Shown piece after piece: positions 1 through 44,570 of a stretch of 64,000 nucleotides of DNA. Both the position numbers and the translations under genes were made by a program. The DNA comes from an uncultured Pseudobdellovibrionaceae bacterium (lineage in GTDB: Bacteria > Patescibacteriota > Minisyncoccia > Moranbacterales > GCA-2747515): the NCBI GenBank assembly GCA_964463705.1, contig CAYXCH010000021.1, positions 1,162 through 65,161 on the forward strand. Reading direction: 5' to 3'. Under the pieces are notes generated by a model. That model was not told the DNA's origin, searched no databases, and was given only the letters and a program-made list of their open reading frames with translations. The first letter of the stretch is position 1; each line of letters starts with the position of its first letter.

Positions 1-2535
1 ACTTCTTCCTGGCTCCCACTTGCCAAACAACGCCATGCTTACTAGATCGTTTGTGCCTAAATCAATTCCAATTCTTAAATAATTGTTAGATTCGCGCAAC
101 TTGGAATTTATATTCTCGTTAAATTCTTGCAATTGCTGCTTGACCTCGTCTTCATCTGCAAAACGAGGATTAAATTGTTCAGCCGGCTGATTTTTTGTAT
201 ACATGAAATGTATATGCATTCTTGATCTGGCGTGCCTGCTTTTTGCGTGTTGTTTTTCTTCTTTTTTAGCTTCAAAATACAGCGAAACCTCGGGGTTTAA
301 TCGTTTTTTATCAATTAAATCTGATCTAATTTTGAGTAACAAATCTTTGAATTCATTTGTAAATCTTTTTGCGTAAGAGATGTTACGAGAAAAATCATAA
401 CCTCCTACCTTCCCAAAATATGCTAGCTCGTCTTTAATAGAATATGAATTTTGATTTTTTAATCCACTATTATACTCTGAAAGCAATCGCATCAATTCTT
501 GTTTGTTGACATGTATTTTTTGCAAAAAGTAGAAAGTTGACTCAAGATCTCGTCTAAATTCTTTTAATGTTTTGTGTGGTTTGTTTAAGATGTTTTGCAA
601 TGAGTTTTTTAACTCTTGAGGCAGCTTTATTGTTGGTGTTTGTTGTTGTGATCCCCTTTTTTTCTTTTTGTTTTCACGCTCTGACCTTTTTGTTGTGTTT
701 TTTATCTTTTTGTATACTTTTGAGGTTACTCTGATTCTTGGGTTGATTTGTAATTTATACAAAAATTTTAGATAAATTTTGATTGTATTAACAACACTTT
801 CTTCTTTATTGTTGTCTGTATTTAATTCTGATAAAAGCTCTGGTGCATTTTTTGCTATAAATTTATTCTTTAAAGCTGACAGAGTAAGAGAATAAAGTAT
901 CATCAATGTAAAATCTGCATTTTTGTTTCGATGCGCGGTTTCTTCAAGAGTTTTTAACTTTTTGAAAGTGAAATCCTTTATTTTGTTCTTTGGAACAAAT
1001 AACGCATGCACATTTTTACAATCAAACTCTTTACCTTTATCAAACCCTAACAATGCCCAATGGGTTAGAAAAAACCTTGCTTTATCTAAACTCTTTTGCT
1101 GAGTAATAAGCCCGCCATTTATTTGAGCTATTATATTTTTTAGAAAAATGAAATCACTGGGCAATCTACGCAATAAACCTGTATAAGCTTGACCGGCTGC
1201 TTGCTTATATTGATTTGTTCCACAATAGGACTCTTCACTGCTATTTTTTTCTTTTTGTTTTTCTTCAGAAACAAAAGCCTTAAATTTATGATCCAACAAA
1301 TCAGGTATGTACCTCCTAAATTTAGATTTAGAAAAATCTTCATGGAGGTTTATAATTTTATTAAGATTATTTAGCTTGTCTTTGTTTTGATCAAGACATT
1401 TTTGAAAATTATTAAACAACACATTCTTATCAACATTTTCACCATATAATTTATATTCTTGCTTAATAAAATCGTTAAATAAATTATCAATATCTTTTTT
1501 TAATTTATTTTTATAAAATTTTCTTAAACAAACAGCCGTCTCCAACAATGGAGTATCAAATATACCTGCGCAACCATTTTCTTGCGCCCATGTTGTGTAC
1601 CCTACATTTTTTAAAATTAAATTTAGGTTGTCTATATTTGCTAATAATTCTTTTTCTCGTTCGTTTTTAGTGTTCTGTTTACGCTTTTCTAAATAAATAC
1701 GAGTCGCAAGTCCCCTTTTACATTCAATCTCTTTAATTTTATTCTCAAGCTCTTTAGGCGTAAAAGACTTGCTGACAGTATACCTATTAAAACTGGCTCT
1801 TAACAATTCTTTTTTATCTTGAAGCACAGTAAAAAGTTTGGTTGTTTGCGCATCTAACTTTTGCGCAGTTATTGTAAAGTCCGACCACTGCTCTGATTGA
1901 GTTAATTTGATTGATTCAATTAATAGTTGCAGAAAAGATATTAAACTTAACCTTCTTTTGTTGCTAAATTCTATTTTGGGGCGTTGCGTAATGAGTTTAA
2001 CCGCGTCTAAAACTCCAGATACCGCGGGTTGAGATTTTGATAGTTCTTCATCAAGAATCTTTAATACAGTTTTGTCATTTTCTTCATCAGCTCTTGCATC
2101 TTTAATTAAATTAGCGACTTGTTTTAAAATCTCAATAAATTGCTCGCGCTCAAAATCTTTTAATTGAGAGAACAAGACATCTCTTTTTGAAGATTGCGGA
2201 TTGATTTCGCGCAACAGTTTGCGCTTAATATTTGGCGATTCTATATTTAATTTGGCAATTGTATTTTGATTAGAATCTATATCTGTTTCATCTTTTCCAC
2301 TCTTTTTTGCTTGTTCAAGATTGTTTTTGTATTCGTGAATTTTTTGCAAATCGCTTATAAAGCTGATTAAAAAATCATGTATAGATGTAAGTTTGTCTTT
2401 TAACTGCTCTGCCTCTTTTTTCAGGTCATCTTGAACTATTTTGTTTAAATTTAGATTCTCAAATATGCTTATAACGCTCTCATCATATGGCAAATACTCA
2501 AACTTAAGCGCTGATATGTATTCATATTTTTTCAT
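1..2535 (-). CDS. Second Cas12a-family (Cas12a-paralog / Cas12a2-like?) effector, partial (C-terminus beyond window start); not in supplied ORF track
   Basis: Hand translation of the reverse complement. ATG at 2535-2533 lies 1 nt after the cas12a stop (2537-2539); an alternative in-frame ATG at 2574-2572 would overlap cas12a by 38 nt. Scanning the forward-strand triplets in this frame I found no TTA/CTA/TCA (reverse-complement stops) from 1 to 2535, so I believe the frame is open, but this was done by eye. The other forward frame is full of stops. N-terminus MKKYEYISALKFEYLPYDESV (WED-I-like, compare Cas12a KTLRFELVPHE). About 830 aa of helical K/N-rich sequence follow, including a basic low-complexity stretch KKIKNTTKRSERENKKKKRGSQQQ. 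RMHIHFMYTKNQ sits in the position of the Cas12a FFFHCPITINFK pre-crRNA-processing motif. FNENINSKLRESNNYLRIGIDLGTNDLVSMALFGKWEPG matches the Cas12a RuvC-I block [30 protein letters not shown]. The sequence then runs off the window. Confidence 0.6.
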   Translation of the reverse strand, partial: MKKYEYISALKFEYLPYDESVISIFENLNLNKIVQDDLKKEAEQLKDKLTSIHDFLISFISDLQKIHEYKNNLEQAKKSGKDETDIDSNQNTIAKLNIESPNIKRKLLREINPQSSKRDVLFSQLKDFEREQFIEILKQVANLIKDARADEENDKTVLKILDEELSKSQPAVSGVLDAVKLITQRPKIEFSNKRRLSLISFLQLLIESIKLTQSEQWSDFTITAQKLDAQTTKLFTVLQDKKELLRASFNRYTVSKSFTPKELENKIKEIECKRGLATRIYLEKRKQNTKNEREKELLANIDNLNLILKNVGYTTWAQENGCAGIFDTPLLETAVCLRKFYKNKLKKDIDNLFNDFIKQEYKLYGENVDKNVLFNNFQKCLDQNKDKLNNLNKIINLHEDFSKSKFRRYIPDLLDHKFKAFVSEEKQKEKNSSEESYCGTNQYKQAAGQAYTGLLRRLPSDFIFLKNIIAQINGGLITQQKSLDKARFFLTHWALLGFDKGKEFDCKNVHALFVPKNKIKDFTFKKLKTLEETAHRNKNADFTLMILYSLTLSALKNKFIAKNAPELLSELNTDNNKEESVVNTIKIYLKFLYKLQINPRIRVTSKVYKKIKNTTKRSERENKKKKRGSQQQTPTIKLPQELKNSLQNILNKPHKTLKEFRRDLESTFYFLQKIHVNKQELMRLLSEYNSGLKNQNSYSIKDELAYFGKVGGYDFSRNISYAKRFTNEFKDLLLKIRSDLIDKKRLNPEVSLYFEAKKEEKQHAKSRHARSRMHIHFMYTKNQPAEQFNPRFADEDEVKQQLQEFNENINSKLRESNNYLRIGIDLGTNDLVSMALFGKWEPGRS

Positions 2536-2536
2536 A

Positions 2537-5500
2537 CTACTTTTTGTTACTGTTAATTTTATAAAGATATTCATCCCAACGATGTTTGTCTATTTTAAGA
2601 TCCGGCTTTTCAGAGCTTGTGCGCACTTCTTGAAGGGCTATGTATCCTTTGCGTGCTATGTTGTATGCGCCAAGATCATCTCCGTTTTTGATAAATGCAT
2701 CTTCTTTGCGTGTATCAAACCCGCATAATGGACACTGTACAAAGTCTGCTTCTTGCTCTTCGCCTGCGCGGTAGTGATTGCGTATTTGCAATACACGATT
2801 TAGGAAATACACAAATGCCTTCCATGCTGTTGCGTATGTGCGTTCATCTTTTTTAAGCAATTCTGGCAACAAATTATCACCACTGCTAAACTCTAATTCA
2901 AAACCTTCAAAAGCAGAACTAAATCCTATAAGCTGACTTTCTGTCGCACCATTGCCAAAAATTGCCTCAAATGCCTTGGCAAAATCATCAGCAGTGAGAG
3001 ACAGAGTGGAGCGTTTGACACTATCCCACACCAATCTATCTACACGAGATGTAATAGTTACTTCTGAACCATCAAATTCTCGTGTATATGTGAGTACAAA
3101 TGCATTACGATTTGTATCATACACAATGGATTTAAAGTGTTTGTTTAAATCTGATATTACTTGGTCTATGTTTTTATACTTGATGTATACATCTTTGCGC
3201 CATCCACAGGTAGGACATGTCTGTGAAGTGTATGCCGGGTCCAAGAAGAAGGTAATACCATGTTGCCCCTGAAGGTCTTTGAGAGAAAGTGTGCCTCGCT
3301 TCTCTTTAGTACACACGAGTTGTGCCGCATCAAATGCATACTGCTGATCTTTGTCTATGATGAGCTCAAGTTTTTGCAGAAGTGCCTTTTGGAACTGCTG
3401 ATACACGCTCTTCTCAAATTGTCCGCCGCGTTTTTGGATAAAGCGGAATGCTAAATTCTCAAGCACAATAATCGCATCATACTCAAGCGCCTTTGAGACT
3501 ATAAAGTGGATAACATGAGAAAGATATCCTTCTTTGAGCTTGGTAATATTCCCGACAGAGCGCCATGTTTTGCGTGCCTCAAGACGCTCACGCTCACGCT
3601 TTTCCAAAAGAGCGTGATAGTCTGTACCGTGTATAGTATTGAGCGAACCCGAGTCAATATGGTTGCCGTCTTTATCAATGAGTGACCAATACAGAAGATG
3701 CTTCTCACCGCGGTCAATACCGAGTATCGCGCATGGCTCTTGAAGGAGCGCTTCGTTTACATGAGTCGTAAATGTTTTGTCGTCTGTGGCTCCTTTATGT
3801 GCGTTAATTTGCACCGGTATGTGGAAAATGAGCTTCCGCTGTGTGTATCGGTGTGCATCATATACCGGCGCATTATCTCTGCTTACTTCTTGTGCTCCAT
3901 TGCTAAGCATCTTCCTTTTTTGGTTTTCACAAGATATATCACGGAAGAAGATTTTACCATCTGCCAAGAGCATATACGGTTGCGGAGTCTGCTTTATATT
4001 TTCATCTGAAAAGAGTGTTTGCCAGATAATCGTATGTACGTTACGTTTTCCGTGTCCTTTACCACAGAGATCTTTGTTACAAATTTTAAAGAGATACAAA
4101 TTGCCACTTTTAACATGCTTCATCAACGCCTCCTCATTAACATTGGCAAAGTAAAAACCCTTCTCTTGTTGCAATGCTGCAATACATGCTTCACGGAATG
4201 CACGTTTAGTTTCAAAGGCTTTGACAACAACACTACGTAATGATGGATAATCATCAAGATATTGAGGGCGCACATTGGTTAAAAATTCTATGCCCTTCGC
4301 GACCCCTTCAGCATCATTCATGTCACTAAATTTTGCACCGTAGTGGTTGAGAAATCCTTTTCCAACCAATGTTTTAAAATCAAGCGTCTTAAGCACCATC
4401 TTTTGCCAAGCACTTTCACTGTCCGTATACATTTTCTCAAAAGAGAAGTTGTTACGCAGGACGCCGAGATATATATCATCTTCATGACGCAAAATCACCG
4501 ACTTTTTGTTAGCAAGTTGACTCTCACTCCATCCACCAAGAAATTGCGGAGAAAAATACACACGCACCTCCTCCTCTGTAGCCAGCTCTTTTGTCAGATA
4601 GTTGCGTGTCTTGTTAAATATTTTTTGAACGCGAATATCCTCAATGAGATATGCAAATTGCTCCCATCTTGCATAGAAATCCTGATCTTTCTCTTCTGCA
4701 GAGAGCTCCTTGAGCACATCAAAATGTTTACTTCCCTTCTTGTCGCGCACACGAAATGTGCGCGCAAGGCGAGACACATCAACAGCCCATTCCAAATAGG
4801 TACGCAAAGCAGCGCGCGCCTCGTCATCAAGGCTACCTTCACGAACTTTCTGCACCGCATTGTCAAAGCCATCAGCAAGCATGCGCACATCCTCAAGCGG
4901 ACGCAACACCTGCTCAATATTATCGCGCCAGCGAGCAAGAAACTCATTCCATGTTGTCGTGCGCCCATCTGCAAGACGGAAGGCATCACCATACTGCTCT
5001 ATATACTCTTTCACCGCTTGTAAGGTTGTGAACCTCTCTTTTTTCTTAAGAACATCGTTAAGTGCCGCCCACTCACTCAACACTGCTTGCGCAACAGCGC
5101 GCAACGATTGTTTGCTGATATAGATTTTTGAAATGTCATATTGATCAATGGTATCAAAAAATGTACTAAAAAACTCTCGCGCTGTGTCGTATAACTCTGT
5201 TATGCGTGGCTTTACTTCAGAGAGCATTGCATAAAGCTCTTCGTCTGACTCTATAGTCTCATAACGCACATCGCGCTCTGTGCCAATTTGGTTGTAGAGC
5301 GTTTGCACCAACGGCAAGCGTTGAGCATGTGTTTGATTGTATGCATTAATTTTATTATTAATCCCCTCTGCACGCACATCACCAACCTCTGCCGCACCGC
5401 CACCGATGATGGTATTATATGTATCTATTCCTTCTTGTGTTAAGACCTTATTATAGAACTCCGGCTTGAAGATTTCTCGTTCATCATCTGTAAGTTCCAC

Positions 5501-6190
5501 TTTCCCGTCAAGCGTACGCTCATAAAGGAGTGCATTCTTTGCAAATATGCGGAGATTATCATCAATCACCCGCGTGGCAACCTGCCCGTGCTTGCCCTCA
5601 TCGCCAAAGTAGTGACCGCGATTGCCCAAGAGGTCATAAAGTTGCGTAAACATACCGCTAAATGCATTGAGGTGGCGCAACGCCTCTTGGTCATTTTCAT
5701 ATTTTCGCTCAAGAATTTTATAAAAATCTTTACTGAGAAGCTTCTTCTGTGAGACCTCTTCTCCATTATACTCGTATGTAAAAGTTTTAACATCATCGGC
5801 AAGCTCTTTGCGGATACGCGCAAGAAGTTGCCACATTTCAGAGATTGTCCTACTGCGCTGTGTAGCATTTTCCGCATTGAGTATTTTCCGTTCCTGCTCT
5901 ATGACAGAGCTAATATCTTCAACACTCAATTGCACTTCTTGTAATGCGCGTGTAATAAAATCAACAATCGCAATGTCCCAGTACTTTTTAATATGCGGAC
6001 GCGCCTCTTGCCGTGCCTGCTCCTCAGGGAAAATCTCTCTTGCTGAAGCTGCGTCAAAATTGATGTATTTACGTGTTGCTTCATGTGGCACAAGCTCAAA
6101 GCGCAGGGTTTTAGTGACGGAGAATTTATTTGTAAATGCACGAAAACTTTGCGAACGAGTAGACGTCGCGGATGGAGATGTCGTAGACAT
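2537..6190 (-). CDS. cas12a: Cas12a (Cpf1) type V-A CRISPR effector nuclease, 1217 aa
   Basis: N-terminus FTNKFSVTKTLRFELVPHEATRKYI (Cas12a WED-I signature). WED-III-like FHIPVQINAHKG. RuvC-I LGIDRGEKHLLYW (Asp codon at 3713-3715). RuvC-II IVLENLAFRF. LYLFKICNKDL...KGHGKRNVHTIIWQTLF (compare Cas12a LYLFQIYNKDF...KGRPNLHTLYWKALF). FLDPAYTSQTCPTCGW (compare Fn YVPAGFTSKICPVTGF). RuvC-III NGDDLGAYNIARKG (compare DADANGAYHIGLKG). CxxC pairs at nt 3206-3217 (CPTC) and 2723-2734 (CPLC). Confidence 0.9.
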   Translation of the reverse strand: MSTTSPSATSTRSQSFRAFTNKFSVTKTLRFELVPHEATRKYINFDAASAREIFPEEQARQEARPHIKKYWDIAIVDFITRALQEVQLSVEDISSVIEQERKILNAENATQRSRTISEMWQLLARIRKELADDVKTFTYEYNGEEVSQKKLLSKDFYKILERKYENDQEALRHLNAFSGMFTQLYDLLGNRGHYFGDEGKHGQVATRVIDDNLRIFAKNALLYERTLDGKVELTDDEREIFKPEFYNKVLTQEGIDTYNTIIGGGAAEVGDVRAEGINNKINAYNQTHAQRLPLVQTLYNQIGTERDVRYETIESDEELYAMLSEVKPRITELYDTAREFFSTFFDTIDQYDISKIYISKQSLRAVAQAVLSEWAALNDVLKKKERFTTLQAVKEYIEQYGDAFRLADGRTTTWNEFLARWRDNIEQVLRPLEDVRMLADGFDNAVQKVREGSLDDEARAALRTYLEWAVDVSRLARTFRVRDKKGSKHFDVLKELSAEEKDQDFYARWEQFAYLIEDIRVQKIFNKTRNYLTKELATEEEVRVYFSPQFLGGWSESQLANKKSVILRHEDDIYLGVLRNNFSFEKMYTDSESAWQKMVLKTLDFKTLVGKGFLNHYGAKFSDMNDAEGVAKGIEFLTNVRPQYLDDYPSLRSVVVKAFETKRAFREACIAALQQEKGFYFANVNEEALMKHVKSGNLYLFKICNKDLCGKGHGKRNVHTIIWQTLFSDENIKQTPQPYMLLADGKIFFRDISCENQKRKMLSNGAQEVSRDNAPVYDAHRYTQRKLIFHIPVQINAHKGATDDKTFTTHVNEALLQEPCAILGIDRGEKHLLYWSLIDKDGNHIDSGSLNTIHGTDYHALLEKRERERLEARKTWRSVGNITKLKEGYLSHVIHFIVSKALEYDAIIVLENLAFRFIQKRGGQFEKSVYQQFQKALLQKLELIIDKDQQYAFDAAQLVCTKEKRGTLSLKDLQGQHGITFFLDPAYTSQTCPTCGWRKDVYIKYKNIDQVISDLNKHFKSIVYDTNRNAFVLTYTREFDGSEVTITSRVDRLVWDSVKRSTLSLTADDFAKAFEAIFGNGATESQLIGFSSAFEGFELEFSSGDNLLPELLKKDERTYATAWKAFVYFLNRVLQIRNHYRAGEEQEADFVQCPLCGFDTRKEDAFIKNGDDLGAYNIARKGYIALQEVRTSSEKPDLKIDKHRWDEYLYKINSNKK

Positions 6191-6256
6191 AAGAGTGTAT
6201 AATAAAACTTTTACGTCTTTTCTTTGCGTGGTCGCCGAAAAGAAAAGAAATCATCA

Positions 6257-6293
6257 CAGAATTATACTCTATAATTCTGTAGAATATTTCTAC
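6257..6293 (-). promoter_or_regulatory. Putative cas12a promoter/operator: perfect 10-bp inverted repeat CAGAATTATA-ctc-TATAATTCTG containing TATAAT on both strands, followed by GTAGA-atatt-TCTAC hairpin
   Basis: Read directly from the sequence. Located 67-103 nt upstream of the cas12a ATG (6190) in the 357-bp intergenic region. The -10-like TATAAT is embedded in the palindrome. Confidence 0.3.
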
Positions 6294-6314
6294 CCTTTTC
6301 TTTGTATAATGAAC

Positions 6315-6390
6315 AAAAAACCTCCCGCAAGGCGGTGCGACCACGCACATTGTAGTGCCTCACGAGAGGATTTTTATGTGCGTGGTCTCT
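6315..6390. terminator. Compound GC-rich hairpins: 12-bp inverted repeat GACCACGCACAT (6339-6350) / ATGTGCGTGGTC (6376-6387) enclosing CCTCacgaGAGG-ATTTTTAT; CCGCaagGCGG flanked by an A6/T6 run
   Basis: On the minus strand this reads hairpin(s) followed by UUUUUU, so it is a likely intrinsic terminator for the upstream minus-strand gene (6548-7102), insulating cas12a. On the plus strand the inner hairpin is also followed by a T-run. Confidence 0.4.
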
Positions 6391-6547
6391 TACAGTATAC
6401 ACGGGAATAGACTATGCTGTCAAAAAATAATATACCTCGAGACCGTTGTCTCTTAGAGGGCTGTATTTTTTAACGGTTTCTTGCCCGGTAATGGCGAAGC
6501 TCCTCAGATCTGTGTATTGCGTATCAGCGTATATATGTCAATACCTC

Positions 6548-7825: not shown

Positions 7826-8980
7826 TTACACAATACGAGTAACGATATAATCGGATAGCGCTGACAATCGCGCTCGTGTTTCAGAGTTAAACGGCAATCG
7901 AGCAATGGCCTCCAAACTTTCTTGGACACAGGTACGTGCATACGCCTCCGCCGCCGCTCGGGCACCGGTATCGGTAATCACTTGACAAAATGTCGCGATT
8001 TCTTCCGGTGTAAGATGATCTGTTCCGCGTAAGGCGTTTATGGTGGCACGTTGGTGATCGGTTGCCCGTTCCAATGCCGTTGCCAATAAAAATGTCATCT
8101 TCCCTTCCGAAATATCAGAGCCAACCGGTTTACCGATTTGCTCCTGTGTTCCGAACAGTCCGATAATATCATCCCGAATCTGAAACGCCGTTCCCAGCGG
8201 AAGGGCAACATCCATGATGGCGCGGTATACTTCCGGATCATCTCCGCGAGCCAAAACAGATCCCAGAATTAACGGTGTGGCAATCGTATAGTGAGCAGTT
8301 TTCTGACGATACATGCGCAATACGTCTGAAGGAGATACGGTGGGCGCTACCGCAAATCGCATATCCGAAGACTGCCCAACCGCAGTTTGTACGATTGTTT
8401 CTTGCATATATCGAAGGGCGGAAATAATTCGTTCGGGGTCACCCGGAGCCGTGAACAATGCGGCACTACCCAGTGCATTAACCATATCGCCAATAATCAG
8501 CGCAATACTCTCCCCCATATGTTGCGCTATTTCGGGAAGATGTGGCTGCAGGCGATCGCGATAGTATGTATGGATCGTCGGAACACCGTGTCGCTGGTCG
8601 TCGCGATCCATGATATCGTCGTGAATGAGCAAGTAAAGATGTATCAATTCAATATAAATACCGGCGCGTGTAATTAGTTCATCATGTGGTGATTTCCCCC
8701 CGCTTCCCACATAACTCCATGCCGCCAACGCCGGACGCAACCGCTTTCCCCCGCCGCATAAAATATTTTTTGCATGGTGGAGTGCGTGAGCCGTTTCTGT
8801 ATCGCTCTGCTTTACATTTTCAATTTGCTCATCCATGTACTGCGCCAACGGCTTATCAAAACGCTCCTTAAACGCCCGCAACTCAGCACGAATATCCGGT
8901 GTTGTCATATAGGTACGATTAAGATATCTTATCGGTATCGGCGCTGTCCGCATTGCGTTGCGCTTCATCCAGTGCAACAC
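7826..8980 (-). CDS. Polyprenyl (trans-isoprenyl) diphosphate synthase
   Basis: First aspartate-rich motif LIHDDIMDRDDQRHG and second FQIRDDIIGLFG. The true start is probably the internal Met MTTPDIR (about 8908), which removes the overlap with smc. Confidence 0.8.
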   Translation of the reverse strand: MLHWMKRNAMRTAPIPIRYLNRTYMTTPDIRAELRAFKERFDKPLAQYMDEQIENVKQSDTETAHALHHAKNILCGGGKRLRPALAAWSYVGSGGKSPHDELITRAGIYIELIHLYLLIHDDIMDRDDQRHGVPTIHTYYRDRLQPHLPEIAQHMGESIALIIGDMVNALGSAALFTAPGDPERIISALRYMQETIVQTAVGQSSDMRFAVAPTVSPSDVLRMYRQKTAHYTIATPLILGSVLARGDDPEVYRAIMDVALPLGTAFQIRDDIIGLFGTQEQIGKPVGSDISEGKMTFLLATALERATDHQRATINALRGTDHLTPEEIATFCQVITDTGARAAAEAYARTCVQESLEAIARLPFNSETRARLSALSDYIVTRIV

Positions 8981-11231
8981 TCAGTAGCCGAGAAATTCCG
9001 TCGCGGTTCATTGTAACACCGTATAACAGTGATGCATGGCGCATGGTTTCGCGATTGTGTGTAATAACAAGAAACTGCGTTTGCTGTGACAGACGATCTA
9101 AAATTGTACCAAATCGTCGGGCATTTGCTTCATCTAGCGCCGCTTCCACCTCGTCCAGCACTACAAATGGCGGTGGATTATGCGCAATAACGGCAAACAG
9201 TAGCGACAATGATACCAGCGATCGCTCTCCACCGGATAACTGAGAAAGATCGGAAATTTTCTTTCCCGGAGGCGTTGCACTAATTGTAATACCAATCATT
9301 TCTCCATCCGAATGTTCTTTTGATGTGCTGCCATCTCCCTCTGTTTCAGACACATCATCCGTTTTCTCCGTCGGTGGCGTAATCCGTGTACGGTGCAATT
9401 TTGCCACACCACCACCAAACATCATGCGGAAATAGCGTGTAAATTCTTTGCTGATGAATCCGTATGCCTCCGCAAACGCCGCATCAATTTGCGCATCCAG
9501 CTCTGCAATAACGGCGCGTGTATCACGAATTGCCGTGTATAAATCATCATGTTGAGAACGGAGGAATTCATAGCGCTCTTTTGTTTCCTCATATTCTTTA
9601 ATGACCAGCGGATCCACCGCACCGGCGCGCTCATGTTCTCGTCGCAATCGTGCAACACGACGTTCTAACGCTTCCATATCATCCACGGTATCAATTGAGG
9701 TATCCTTCAATAACTCTTCCGGCGTTGTTCCCAATTCCGTTTGTATCGCCGTCCGCAAATCTTCCTCGCGAACATCATTTTTTGCGCATTGAATATTGAT
9801 TTCATTGTATGCGGTGCGCGCGGCATCCAGTACCCGTTCTTTCTCTCGCAATACACGCTCTTTAGCAAAGAATTCCGCGCGTCGCTTCCGCTCCTCACTG
9901 GCGGCGGTGGCGGCGGCCTGTTCGGCATCGGCAATCGTTTTCATGCATCGGGCAATGTCCGCATCCAATGCCTCTCGTTGTTTCCGCAATGGTGAGATTG
10001 CGCGTTCTTGCTCCGCTCGAATACGTTCTTTTTCCGCGCTAACGTCTACATCTACGCTTCCGCGAATTACAGCCTCTCGCAAAGCGGATAATGCCGTTCG
10101 CAATGTAGACAACGCCGCTCGCACTGTGGAAATATCCGCATCATCGGAAACGGTAATGCGTTCCAACAGCTGTGTTAATTCGGCACGAACATATTGGGTA
10201 TCTACGGGAATTCGTTCTTTTAGTGCGGCAATATCACGCTCAGCGCGCTCAATATGCAGAGTAATTGTTGCATCAATCTTCGCTCGTTTTGCTCGGTAAG
10301 TGTCCAGCGTTTCTCGCGCTTCCCGTAGCTGTCGAGCAATTGTGTCATCTCCACTTGCCTCTGTTTCCAGCTCCGCCGCATACGCGCTCAGTTCTTTTGA
10401 TAGTGCGTCTACTTCCGCCTGTGCGGCGTCGCACGCGGCACGACGAGCGCGCTGTTCTTCACGCAATGTTCGCTGTTGCTCAAAAAATGTTGTTGCCGTA
10501 TGAAAAAACAATGTTCGTTGCGCTGTCTGCAACTCTTCCGCAATCTCTCGCGCTCGTTCCGCTCGTCGGGCTTGTCGTTTAAGAGATGCCAGATGTGGTT
10601 CGATTTCTTGCAGCAGTGTTGTCACGCGCTCCATGTTTGTTTCTGCTCGTCGCAGAGAAGATTGCGCCCGCGCCTTTTTAATCTGAAACGGTTTTACTCC
10701 CGCAGCGTCTTCAATAATTGCTCGTCGTTCTAAGGGTGTTGCCGTTAGCATTGCATCCGTCATGCCCTGAGTAATGATACTGTAACTTCCCTTTCCCAAT
10801 CCGGCATGAGCAAGTAAATCGGTAACGTCCATACGACGCACGCGCGCACCGTTGATGGTGTACTCGCTTCGTCCGTCACGGTAAACGGTACGTGTCAGTA
10901 CCACGTCACGGTATTCTGTTCCGAGCGTTCCGTCGCTGTTATCAAAATGAAGAGATACGCGACCGCTTCCGCTGCGACGCTGTGTATCACTTCCGGCAAA
11001 AATCACTCCATCACCGCTTTTGGAGCGAAGGCTTTTCATGGACTGCTCCCCCATCACCCACCGTACCGCATCCGCAATATTGGATTTTCCACTTCCATTC
11101 GGCCCGACGATTGCCGTTATTCCATATCGGACCGAACCGTCATCAGCATGAGTCATCGCTGCAGAAACGTCCAACACCGTCTCTTGTGCAAATGACTTAA
11201 ATCCGTGTAATGTAATCTTTGTGAGAAACAT
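8919..11231 (-). CDS. smc: SMC-family chromosome condensation ATPase, short (770 aa), no recognisable hinge
   Basis: N-terminus ITLHGFKSF...AIVGPNGSGKSNIADAVRWVMGEQS (SMC head/Walker A). Long coiled-coil. C-terminus LSQLSGGERSLVSLSLLFA...VVLDEVEAALD (signature motif/Walker B). Confidence 0.75.
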   Translation of the reverse strand: MFLTKITLHGFKSFAQETVLDVSAAMTHADDGSVRYGITAIVGPNGSGKSNIADAVRWVMGEQSMKSLRSKSGDGVIFAGSDTQRRSGSGRVSLHFDNSDGTLGTEYRDVVLTRTVYRDGRSEYTINGARVRRMDVTDLLAHAGLGKGSYSIITQGMTDAMLTATPLERRAIIEDAAGVKPFQIKKARAQSSLRRAETNMERVTTLLQEIEPHLASLKRQARRAERAREIAEELQTAQRTLFFHTATTFFEQQRTLREEQRARRAACDAAQAEVDALSKELSAYAAELETEASGDDTIARQLREARETLDTYRAKRAKIDATITLHIERAERDIAALKERIPVDTQYVRAELTQLLERITVSDDADISTVRAALSTLRTALSALREAVIRGSVDVDVSAEKERIRAEQERAISPLRKQREALDADIARCMKTIADAEQAAATAASEERKRRAEFFAKERVLREKERVLDAARTAYNEINIQCAKNDVREEDLRTAIQTELGTTPEELLKDTSIDTVDDMEALERRVARLRREHERAGAVDPLVIKEYEETKERYEFLRSQHDDLYTAIRDTRAVIAELDAQIDAAFAEAYGFISKEFTRYFRMMFGGGVAKLHRTRITPPTEKTDDVSETEGDGSTSKEHSDGEMIGITISATPPGKKISDLSQLSGGERSLVSLSLLFAVIAHNPPPFVVLDEVEAALDEANARRFGTILDRLSQQTQFLVITHNRETMRHASLLYGVTMNRDGISRLLSVALDEAQRNADSADTDKIS

Positions 11232-17545: not shown

Positions 17546-18085
17546 CTACTTCTCAAATAGTTCCATATCTCGCAGAAACGTTTCATATTGTGCCAGTGTT
17601 CGCTCCGCCTCCTCTCGTGTCAGCGTAAAATCTCGCTGTGAAACAATTGCCGCACAGACCTCATGAGCCTCCCGCAATTGGGCGGCACTATCAATCATTT
17701 GTCTCTCCAATAAGGATATTTTTTCCGCCATGGTCGGTTTTTTGTATCCGATTTTATCAAGAAGACGTTCAATCATCTGATCCGCTTCCAGTATGGCAAC
17801 CTTGTAATATTGGGGATCGGATTTTTTCAATCGTGACATAATGCGGCGCCACTTTCGCTTAACCTCAACATGTGTATGTACCTTTGCTCCCCGCTTACTC
17901 TTTCGCATCTCATCTCGTGCGTTAATGAGGAAAAGCAAAATAATAATTGACACGATAAGCACCGTAACATACACTGCGGCAAAAAATTTCAATACACTGA
18001 AAAACGGTGAGTGGAACAACCACACCCACCCATCACCAATACGATCTATTGCAGAGACAGATTGTTCGGTTTGTGTAAACGTCAT
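17546..18085 (-). CDS. Hypothetical membrane-anchored protein
   Basis: One TM (FFAAVYVTVLIVSIIILLFLI) followed by a charged helical region. 4-nt overlap with gatA. Confidence 0.4.
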   Translation of the reverse strand: MTFTQTEQSVSAIDRIGDGWVWLFHSPFFSVLKFFAAVYVTVLIVSIIILLFLINARDEMRKSKRGAKVHTHVEVKRKWRRIMSRLKKSDPQYYKVAILEADQMIERLLDKIGYKKPTMAEKISLLERQMIDSAAQLREAHEVCAAIVSQRDFTLTREEAERTLAQYETFLRDMELFEK

Positions 18086-42848: not shown

Positions 42849-44372
<1,524 letters not shown>

Positions 44373-44570
44373 AAAGCGATACCGTTTTCAGCAACCGATG
44401 CTCGCTTCCACATCGGGCAAGTTTCCAACGGAAACTTCGGATACGCGATACTGTCGTTGCCATATCGGCGTGTCTCGTGTCGCTTGGCACGAGACGTTTT
44501 CTTATGAAAACCGACAACTGCCGTGTTACTGTGTAACACAATGAAAGTGGTCCGTGCTCACAGTCTGTCA

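Follow-up and report, generated by a model that had tools for sequence, protein, structure and literature searches.

Several CRISPR systems are known in which a second RuvC-type effector accompanies Cas12a. Some Type V-A fragments encode, within the operon, a distant Type V effector in which the three RuvC residues are present and which likely shares its CRISPR RNA (crRNA) with cas12a; similar observations in Roizmanbacteria were cited in that study, and the name Type V-L was proposed for the arrangement (PMC7757703). Tandem cas12a-cas12a2 loci have been published and crRNA sharing has been demonstrated experimentally for Cas12a2 (PMC9811890), an RNA-triggered abortive-infection nuclease that degrades double-stranded DNA, single-stranded DNA and RNA. 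Cas12a3 and Cas12a4 followed in 2026 as two further clades. Cas12a3 enzymes are RNA-triggered type V nucleases that cut the 3' CCA tails of tRNAs, and collateral cleavage of RNA or tRNA triggered by RNA is established for both Cas12a3 and Cas12a4 (PMC12851939, PMC13594972). Each named clade has its own substrate profile, Ba1 and Sm3 Cas12a3 differ in their substrate rules, and the authors describe the group as hyper-evolvable. Here we describe a gene, referred to as gene 2, that lies directly downstream of cas12a at the edge of a 64,000-nucleotide stretch of contig CAYXCH010000021.1 (assembly GCA_964463705.1) from an uncultured bacterium; we refer to this whole stretch as the window. We find that the gene 2 protein, P0001, belongs to the described Cas12a3 group (formerly 'Type V-L'), of which it is a divergent and uncharacterised representative, and that its operon has a layout known since 2020. 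Our preferred reading, to which we assign a probability of roughly 0.65, is that gene 2 encodes a crRNA-guided RuvC nuclease, a basal Cas12a3, which would share crRNAs with Cas12a and back it up as an RNA-activated collateral RNase.

Gene 2 is an intact gene directly behind cas12a

The reading frame of gene 2 opens with an ATG at 2535-2533 on the minus strand, is separated by a single T from the TAG stop codon of cas12a, and runs through 845 codons with zero stops to the left edge of the window. The initial annotation had described this frame, and our re-translation bears it out. Gene 2 is missing from the list of open reading frames (ORFs) because the program that made the list skips ORFs running off the source, a technical matter and not a biological one. 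In public assemblies the full-length protein is 1230 aa, with a TAA stop and no internal stop, so that the final 385 codons and the stop (1158 nt) fall outside the left window edge. The identical protein has been called on two public contigs, one in ENA and one, of 138,974 bp, in NCBI, and its N-terminus, MKKYEY, agrees with the N-termini of homologs. JGI metagenome contigs gave no exact match, and neither the protein nor the DNA was present in the genome collection searched. The frame is a real, intact gene.

The residues expected of a RuvC nuclease are all in place in P0001. The RuvC triad consists of D825 (in RIGIDLGT), E1108 (in IFMENL) and D1216 (in DPDILAACNIA), and the zinc-ribbon cysteines are C1182, C1185, C1196 and C1201 (CPVC...CENKEC); these residues are invariant, 7 of 7, in a 30-sequence family alignment. 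The triad falls into the alignment columns that hold the catalytic residues in every clade, namely Cas12a, Cas12a2, Cas12a3 and Cas12a4, with D825 opposite LbCas12a D833, SuCas12a2 D848 and Ba1Cas12a3 D712 (the corresponding D/E/D of BaCas12a3 is D733/E1052/D1156). The initial annotation had taken the IGIDLGTN block for RuvC-I, which this alignment supports, and had looked to the unseen C-terminus for RuvC-II, a zinc ribbon and RuvC-III, all of which are present in the full-length protein. A zinc ribbon is a feature of Cas12a3, and the Cas12a Nuc and other Cas12a domain models are unmatched in P0001; a weak Cas12f1-like TNB match covers residues 1171-1205.

Placement of the gene 2 protein among the Cas12a-type clades

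Most single-sequence library searches do not recognise P0001. Neither the fragment within the window nor full-length P0001, used as a single sequence, gave anything significant against Pfam, NCBIfam or PDB (phmmer), and P0001 did not match TIGR04330 or the Pfam Cas12a domains (REC1, REC2, RuvC_1 and Nuc) at E values up to 10. The first library to recognise it was PADLOC, in which two models labelled 'Cas12a', PDLC01232 and PDLC01230 (934 and 950 positions), matched it end to end at 2.4e-49 and 2e-44, respectively; the true Cas12a encoded next door is matched by these models over its RuvC end only, and automated annotation with them would name gene 2 'Cas12a'. A word-indexed protein search, with the single sequence or a four-sequence alignment, returned only P0001 itself, probably having been swamped by low-complexity words rich in lysine and asparagine (K/N). 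Exhaustive searching with HMMER, covering 1.84 billion cluster representatives, turned up 45 relatives. Two of these, P0002 and P0003, are moderately close (35-36% identity), and the others, mostly of 1000-1200 aa, were found at E values of 1e-30 or weaker. The distant relatives P0004 and P0010 match solved Cas12a3 structures at ~1e-50 to 1e-60, and nearly all full-length distant relatives score 140-1000 bits against Cas12a3 references and at most 57 bits against Cas12a2 in pairwise phmmer comparisons. A profile built from P0001-P0003 matched the Cas12a3 entries 21WE (4e-31) and 9HLX (3e-22) in PDB, nearly end to end, and matched no Cas12a2 or Cas12a entry.

For classification we used 14, later 17, labelled sequences from the supplementary FASTA of the Cas12a3 paper. 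The 16 complete references agree in length with the paper's table, and the remaining one, MG60_8, is a 949-aa C-terminal part; only 7 of ~48 published Cas12a3 references are included, the clade hidden Markov models (HMMs) were built from published references only, and the trees are neighbour-joining trees. P0001 scores 117.9 bits against the Cas12a3 HMM, in one collinear domain spanning residues 34-1225, and 24 bits against the Cas12a2 HMM; the Cas12a and Cas12a4 HMMs give no score. For comparison, the undisputed Cas12a3 proteins P0004 and P0010 score 562-577 bits against Cas12a3, 72-104 against Cas12a2 and 22-56 against Cas12a and Cas12a4, and the Cas12a2 references score 78-93, above 2000 and 27-125 bits, respectively.

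Tree reconstruction (45 sequences, 982 trimmed columns, 100 bootstraps) groups P0001, P0002 and P0003 with 100% support, and these three with P0014, again with 100%. The remaining 30 Cas12a3-clade sequences group alone at 96% and together with this lineage at 100%, and the lineage groups with Cas12a2 in 0% of bootstraps. Recoding into the six Dayhoff classes, which was meant to remove the bias of a K/N/I-rich composition, left the topology unchanged, with support of 100, 100 and 99%. Across trees, support for Cas12a3 plus the lineage is 99-100% and for the lineage plus Cas12a2 0-1%, and the lineage branches below all 32 other sampled Cas12a3-clade sequences, which remain monophyletic when it is left out, at 92-100%. 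The lineage shares a mean identity of 21.3% with other Cas12a3, as compared with ~20% between named clades and 33% within Cas12a3; P0001 is ~17% identical to canonical Cas12a.

The predicted fold points the same way. We modelled P0001 with AlphaFold2 from a 30-sequence alignment (predicted local distance difference test, pLDDT, 71.9; predicted template-modelling score, pTM, 0.55) and compared the model with PDB using Foldseek. Ba1Cas12a3 ranks first (2.4e-26, template-modelling (TM) score 0.51-0.52) and BaCas12a3 next; Cas12a2 follows at 2.3e-20 (TM 0.37) and canonical Cas12a at ~1e-9 (TM ~0.25). All 50 matches listed are Cas12a3, Cas12a2 or Cas12a-type entries. Taken together, the HMMs, trees and fold search place P0001 nearest to Cas12a3, in what appears to be a basal sub-lineage of that clade. 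The view of the initial annotation that gene 2 encodes a divergent second RuvC-type Cas12 effector tightly coupled to cas12a is supported.

Cas12a3 (Ba1Cas12a3, PDB 9HLX and related entries; BaCas12a3, 21WE and 21WJ) is the best match by profile, HMM, tree and fold, and it shares with P0001 the RuvC triad, the replacement of Nuc by a zinc ribbon, the motifs NPS[YF]F and TTAK, the RLNPE strand, a processing arginine and most contacts to the protospacer-flanking sequence (PFS). In the insertion domain between RuvC-I and RuvC-II, P0001 carries NPSFF at 895-899 and TTAKVI at 934-939. The motif NPS[YF]F occurs in three of four lineage members and 20 of 30 Cas12a3 sequences, and TTAK[VL]I...N[GA]D in 4/4 and 23/30; both are absent from all 11 Cas12a2, Cas12a4 and Cas12a references. 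RLNPE is invariant within the lineage and present in 27/30 Cas12a3, 1/5 Cas12a4 and 0/3 Cas12a2 sequences. P0001 differs from Cas12a3 in that it lacks an insert of the Ba1 type and that its RuvC-I reads RIGID(L/V)GT rather than YGIDRG. That insert, the tRNA-loading domain (tRLD; Ba1 residues 855-960, with R902/Y922/N924), confers tRNA specificity on Ba1Cas12a3, and this extra domain is present in only ~35% of Cas12a3 homologs. The insert with R902/Y922/N924 has no counterpart in P0001, and Ba4, Bd and ca1Cas12a3 lack it too; this part of the protein is hypervariable among Cas12a3 sequences themselves, and the P0001 model has a pLDDT of ~45-65 there.

The PFS-contact and processing residues are largely retained. 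PFS contacts common to BaCas12a3 and SuCas12a2, together with one processing arginine, have been listed (PMC13594972), and three of the four PFS-contact positions are kept in P0001: Y252, equivalent by alignment to SuCas12a2 Y254 and BaCas12a3 Y218, and S549 and T551. At the position of the contacting lysine P0001 has N557, between K556 and K558. The initial annotation had proposed that a pre-crRNA-processing motif of Cas12a has a counterpart in this protein. The region was rightly located, but the counterpart is not mechanistically equivalent: neither Cas12a2 nor Cas12a3 has kept H843/K852/K869 of Cas12a (PMC13594972), and what is conserved instead is R767, equivalent to SuCas12a2 R785 and BaCas12a3 R679, an arginine in 15 of 15 displayed sequences from all clades. 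The resemblance of the N-terminus to a WED strand, also pointed out there, holds as a family feature in alignment with relatives; the Y-x-Y-[TI] motif is found in 3/4 lineage members, 13/30 Cas12a3, 1/5 Cas12a4, 0/3 Cas12a2 and 0/3 Cas12a sequences. We note that the polybasic stretch is specific to P0001, having no counterpart in its two closest relatives, P0002 and P0003, and that part of it (model residues 599-604) is predicted with a pLDDT below 50.

The other clades resemble P0001 less. Cas12a4 (ApCas12a4, an RNA-triggered RNase) belongs to the same wider group and has in common with P0001 the RuvC domain, a zinc ribbon and an association with CRISPR, but its HMM gives no score, it stands apart in the tree and its N-terminus reads NLYEV.KT..FELKPS; an N-terminal motif of the NLYE/FTN.Y type is present in 5/5 Cas12a4 references and 0/4 lineage members. 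Canonical Cas12a (the neighbouring protein, LbCas12a and FnCas12a) has WED, REC and RuvC-I, II and III in the same order, and the same crRNA repeat type occurs in the loci of the relatives of P0001, consistent with distant common ancestry; in the Cas12a2/Cas12a3 group, according to the literature, the Nuc domain and bridge helix of Cas12a are replaced by a zinc ribbon and an insertion domain.

Part of this sub-lineage is already in the published record. Motif searches of the Cas12a3 paper's FASTA retrieved MG60_8Cas12a3, for which Goltsman et al. 2020 is given as the source (PMC7757703; family Cas12l-M60, 'Type V-L'). MG60_8 shares 74% identity with P0014 over 946 residues but only 25% with P0001, and the five known sequences of the basal sub-lineage (P0001, P0002, P0003, P0014 and MG60_8) group with 100% bootstrap support. 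Because MG60_8Cas12a3 falls inside it, the lineage counts as Cas12a3 by published labelling, and the suggestion of the initial annotation that gene 2 may be a new lineage is not supported. Nor is Cas12a2 the only precedent for a second effector beside cas12a, as had been supposed: there are the Type V-L operons described in 2020 (PMC7757703) and the Cas12a3 and Cas12a4 clades, and the Type V-L layout is what we find here, with a second RuvC effector that has its D/E/D residues, on the same strand, 1 nt behind cas12a. P0001 and six relatives have no exact match in the FASTA, and we found no representative of the P0001/P0002/P0003 branch in the published sequence set; the Nature Cas12a3 paper mentions neither MG60_8 nor the label 'MG60' in its main text. 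Among ~15 billion proteins, each of the four lineage members that we checked is a singleton deriving from an NCBI assembly. Text matches to 'Cas12a5' as a named clade proved to be citation-number artefacts, and a 2025 paper on 'Cas12a clades' is about canonical DNA-cutting Cas12a.

The gene order at the window edge recurs in the lineage. The upstream partner of gene 2 scores 469.7 bits against TIGR04330 (NCBIfam curated cutoff 300) and 742 bits against a PADLOC Cas12a model, matches Pfam REC1, REC2 and RuvC_1, and has an intact RuvC triad, D826/E911/D1171, so that catalytic triads are kept in both effectors of the window. In 4 of 4 readable lineage loci cas12a lies directly upstream, with gaps of 1-25 nt. 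At the P0002 locus (L002) a Cas12a C-terminal fragment (TIGR04330, 202 bits) precedes P0002, and cas4, cas1, cas2 and then 25 repeats of CTCAAATAGACCTATCAAATTTCTACTTTTGTAGAT follow it. At the P0003 locus (L004) a 1483-aa Cas12a is encoded upstream, and downstream are a nucleotidyltransferase pair resembling a toxin-antitoxin system, cas4, cas1, cas2 and then 19 repeats of GTCTAATCCATATAGAAAATTTCTACTGTTGTAGAT. P0014 is encoded on a 4.2-kb contig behind a fragment 50% identical to the C-terminus of the Cas12a of the P0003 locus. Both arrays have the classic Cas12a 3' handle, their repeats ending in AATTTCTACT(T/G)TTGTAGAT. Among canonical Cas12a3-clade controls, cas12a is directly or closely upstream in three of four (P0009, L007; P0024, L009; P0004, L006); the cas12a tandem is therefore a tendency common to the Cas12a3 group as a whole rather than a peculiarity of the lineage of P0001. 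It is not mentioned in the main text of either Cas12a3 paper.

We also made several side observations at these loci. The pair between the effector and cas4 in L004 (13450-14137) consists of NTase_sub_bind and NTP_transf_2 proteins and is toxin-antitoxin-like. The last repeat of the P0003 array, the one farthest from cas2 (17686-17735), is degenerate at its 3' end (…TCTACTGGTATTTTT), and one repeat of the P0002 array (L002, 8173-8236) has two substitutions in the stem (ATTTATACCTTTGTAGAT).

Proposed function and competing readings

If gene 2 encodes a basal Cas12a3 of this kind, it would be co-transcribed with cas12a as one operon, perhaps from the promoter-like site upstream of cas12a. Cas12a and the gene 2 protein would both load crRNAs from one Type V-A array with repeats ending in UCUAC[N3-5]GUAGAU; matching DNA would be cut by Cas12a, and the gene 2 protein would bind a complementary RNA transcript beside a purine-rich flanking sequence. 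Recognition of this RNA might then activate the single RuvC site and lead to collateral cleavage of RNA, the substrate possibly being tRNA 3' tails, as it is for the Cas12a3 enzymes characterised so far, and the growth arrest that followed would provide a second, abortive-infection-type layer of defence. We infer crRNA sharing, RNA targeting and the collateral substrate from the biochemistry of Cas12a2, Cas12a3 and Cas12a4. The window genome would also have to contain such an array.

Several observations weigh against this proposal. The Cas12a3-HMM score of P0001 (118 bits) is nearer to those of the Cas12a2 references (78-93) than to those of undisputed Cas12a3 (>560), and an identity of ~21% to other Cas12a3 barely exceeds the ~20% seen between clades. 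The PFS-contact lysine is shifted by one residue, and the closest relatives of P0001 do not keep Y252. Specificity for tRNA is unsupported, because the Ba1-type insert is absent and the equivalent region of the model is of low confidence. We found no sign in the literature that any member of the sub-lineage has been characterised biochemically. As for whether this genome has a complete system, the 64-kb window has no detectable CRISPR array, Cas12a-type repeat or cas1, cas2 or cas4 gene, and the public ENA contig stops 3 nt past the gene 2 stop codon. In the relatives, however, the adaptation genes and array are downstream, exactly where the data for the window genome stop. Lastly, the guanine-cytosine (GC) content of gene 2 (0.31) is sharply off that of cas12a (0.43) and of the host (0.49 over the remaining 58 kb), and the change from 0.40-0.45 to 0.27-0.35 coincides exactly with the gene boundary, at ~2536.

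The alternative that survives best is that the sub-lineage differs in function from other Cas12a3. The sub-lineage may form a fifth class within the Cas12a2/a3/a4 group, functionally distinct and acting on a collateral substrate, or responding to a trigger, of its own, and in the window genome its gene may have entered an established V-A operon in a swap, through horizontal gene transfer; we hold this only as a tentative minority view. A swap is suggested because a gene of GC 0.31 stands beside sequence of 0.43 and 0.49, and, if true, it would mean a modular exchange of the second effector. We consider the narrower form of this idea, in which the substrate is something other than tRNA tails or the trigger is DNA, so that a further functional class would stand beside Cas12a2, Cas12a3 and Cas12a4, to be rather unlikely. 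That the divergence from characterised Cas12a3 equals the depth between named clades is in keeping with it, as are the differences in substrate from one named clade to the next and even between Ba1 and Sm3, and the lack of a Ba1-type tRLD insert in P0001, a domain that only ~35% of Cas12a3 homologs have. Set against this are the motifs NPS[YF]F and TTAK of the insertion domain, which are shared with Cas12a3 only, the retention of 3/4 of the PFS-contact positions of RNA-targeting enzymes, and the filing of the published member MG60_8 as Cas12a3; we found nothing that points positively to another substrate.

A second possibility is that gene 2 is no working partner of the window cas12a, being either a mis-assembled low-GC fragment or a decaying, array-less orphan acquired by transfer. 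The abrupt drop in GC at the boundary, the location of gene 2 at the very end of the ENA contig and the failure to find an array or cas1, cas2 or cas4 in 64 kb would all be explained in this way. We nevertheless think it improbable. The order of cas12a followed by the effector matches that in 4/4 relatives and 3/4 canonical Cas12a3 controls, the gene is carried on two public contigs, and the 1230-codon ORF is intact and keeps all catalytic and zinc-binding residues. Mis-assembly is an unlikely source of the GC step, because the join preserves the conserved gene order with an intact stop codon, 1 nt and an ATG. The genomes of the relatives are uniformly AT-rich (GC 0.26-0.35), and the simplest reading of the composition is that gene 2 was acquired horizontally from an AT-rich donor, perhaps together with downstream DNA.

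That gene 2 might be an ortholog of Cas12a2, and so an RNA-triggered shredder of dsDNA, ssDNA and RNA, deserves mention since published tandem cas12a-cas12a2 operons share an array. Cas12a2 (SuCas12a2, PDB 8D49), often found in tandem with cas12a on one array, likewise has a zinc ribbon replacing Nuc; it is close to P0001 in length (1232 and 1230 aa, respectively), is its second-best fold match, and has in common with it the PFS-contact Tyr/Ser/Thr and the processing arginine, and the zinc cysteines of P0001 are near SuCas12a2 positions C1170/C1173/C1188/C1191. It is a different clade, however. The HMM scores (24 bits as against 118 for Cas12a3) and bootstraps (0-1%) separate the two, PDB searches gave no sequence match to 8D49 even by profile, and the N-terminal and insertion-domain motifs of P0001 are of the Cas12a3 type, those of the Cas12a2 type not being present. 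The aromatic clamp regions with which Cas12a2 carries out collateral cleavage of dsDNA are, according to the literature, entirely lacking in Cas12a3. We regard a Cas12a2 identity as highly improbable and effectively refuted by the scores, bootstraps, PDB searches and motif types, and the initial annotation was right not to assign gene 2 to Cas12a2.

Least credible of all is the suggestion, raised in the initial annotation as a way in which its own reading could fail, that gene 2 is not a Cas gene and IGIDLGT is the phosphate-1 loop of an actin- or Hsp70-like ATPase: the one match in its favour, to NCBIfam EutJ (residues 795-837, E 0.0014), reaches 17.9 bits where the cutoff is 182, no ATPase is among the 50 fold matches listed, and the aspartate aligns with RuvC-I of all Cas12a-group clades and is followed by RuvC-II, RuvC-III and the zinc ribbon. 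An origin of gene 2 from TnpB or a transposon was set aside on account of how large the protein is (1230 aa) and because its relatives are encoded among CRISPR-cas genes.

Surrounding features and significance

Table 1. Window positions of gene 2, its motifs, cas12a and the region upstream of cas12a
Feature	Position	Strand	Basis
Gene 2, 5' part, codons 1-845 of 1230	1..2535	-	Open frame; identical P0001; clade HMM, trees and fold search
RuvC-I, RIGIDLGTNDL, residues 821-831 (catalytic D825 at 61-63)	43..75	-	Alignment
Predicted crRNA-processing site region, KSRHARSRMHIHFMYTKNQ, residues 765-783	187..243	-	Alignment; roles from PMC13594972
Conserved WED strand, RLNPE, residues 745-749	289..303	-	Alignment
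Polybasic insert, KKIKNTTKRSERENKKKKRG, residues 609-628	652..711	-	Gap region relative to P0002 and P0003
SLTLSALKNK, residues 549-558 (S549 and T551, PFS-contact Ser/Thr equivalents)	862..891	-	Alignment
ASFNRYT, residues 247-253 (holds Y252)	1777..1797	-	Alignment; residue roles from PMC13594972
First WED strand of the family, YEYISALKFEYLP, residues 4-16	2488..2526	-	Aligns with KYEYT.SI.F of relatives and Cas12a3-clade proteins
cas12a, canonical Type V-A effector, 1217 aa, upstream partner in the operon	2537..6190	-	TIGR04330, Pfam, PADLOC
Non-coding region upstream of cas12a	6191..6547	-	Consensus matches only

Upstream of cas12a, the best σ70-like site on the minus strand is a putative one, a consensus match of the form TTGACA-18-TATACT (6423 to 6394). 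Between it and the cas12a start at 6190 are a perfect 12-bp hairpin and then a small, terminator-like GC stem followed by a U-run (6340 to 6325). The minus strand from 6423 to 6312 has a fold energy of -32.6 kcal/mol (z = -4.27) and matches no Rfam family; this element could be the terminator of an upstream 181-aa gene, a leader or a small RNA of ~70 nt.

Two further features of the window lie outside the CRISPR locus. An SMC homolog at 8919-11231 on the minus strand has 770 aa as compared with the 1181 positions of TIGR02168, which it matches in two stretches with 635 bits (equivalog cutoff 567), and it seems to be without much of the coiled coil or the hinge; the last 62 nt of its gene (8919-8980) are shared with the next ORF. 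A complete 16S rRNA gene is present at 42851-44374, and no 23S rRNA, 5S rRNA or tRNA genes were detected in the window, which points to an unlinked rRNA gene in a stretch devoid of tRNA genes.

Neither the gene family nor the operon layout is new to the literature, and our findings therefore leave the current view of type V systems unchanged. The collateral activities of Cas12a2, Cas12a3 and Cas12a4 differ (shredding of DNA and RNA, clipping of tRNA tails and cleavage of RNA, respectively), and these enzymes were quickly turned into diagnostic and cell-killing tools. An intact, deep-branching relative from a sub-lineage with ~5 known sequences among ~15 billion proteins is a reasonable candidate for another substrate preference. 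The GC break between the two genes is a hint that V-A operons can exchange their second effectors, and gene 2 and cas12a together would make a natural pair for studying two effectors on one crRNA pool.

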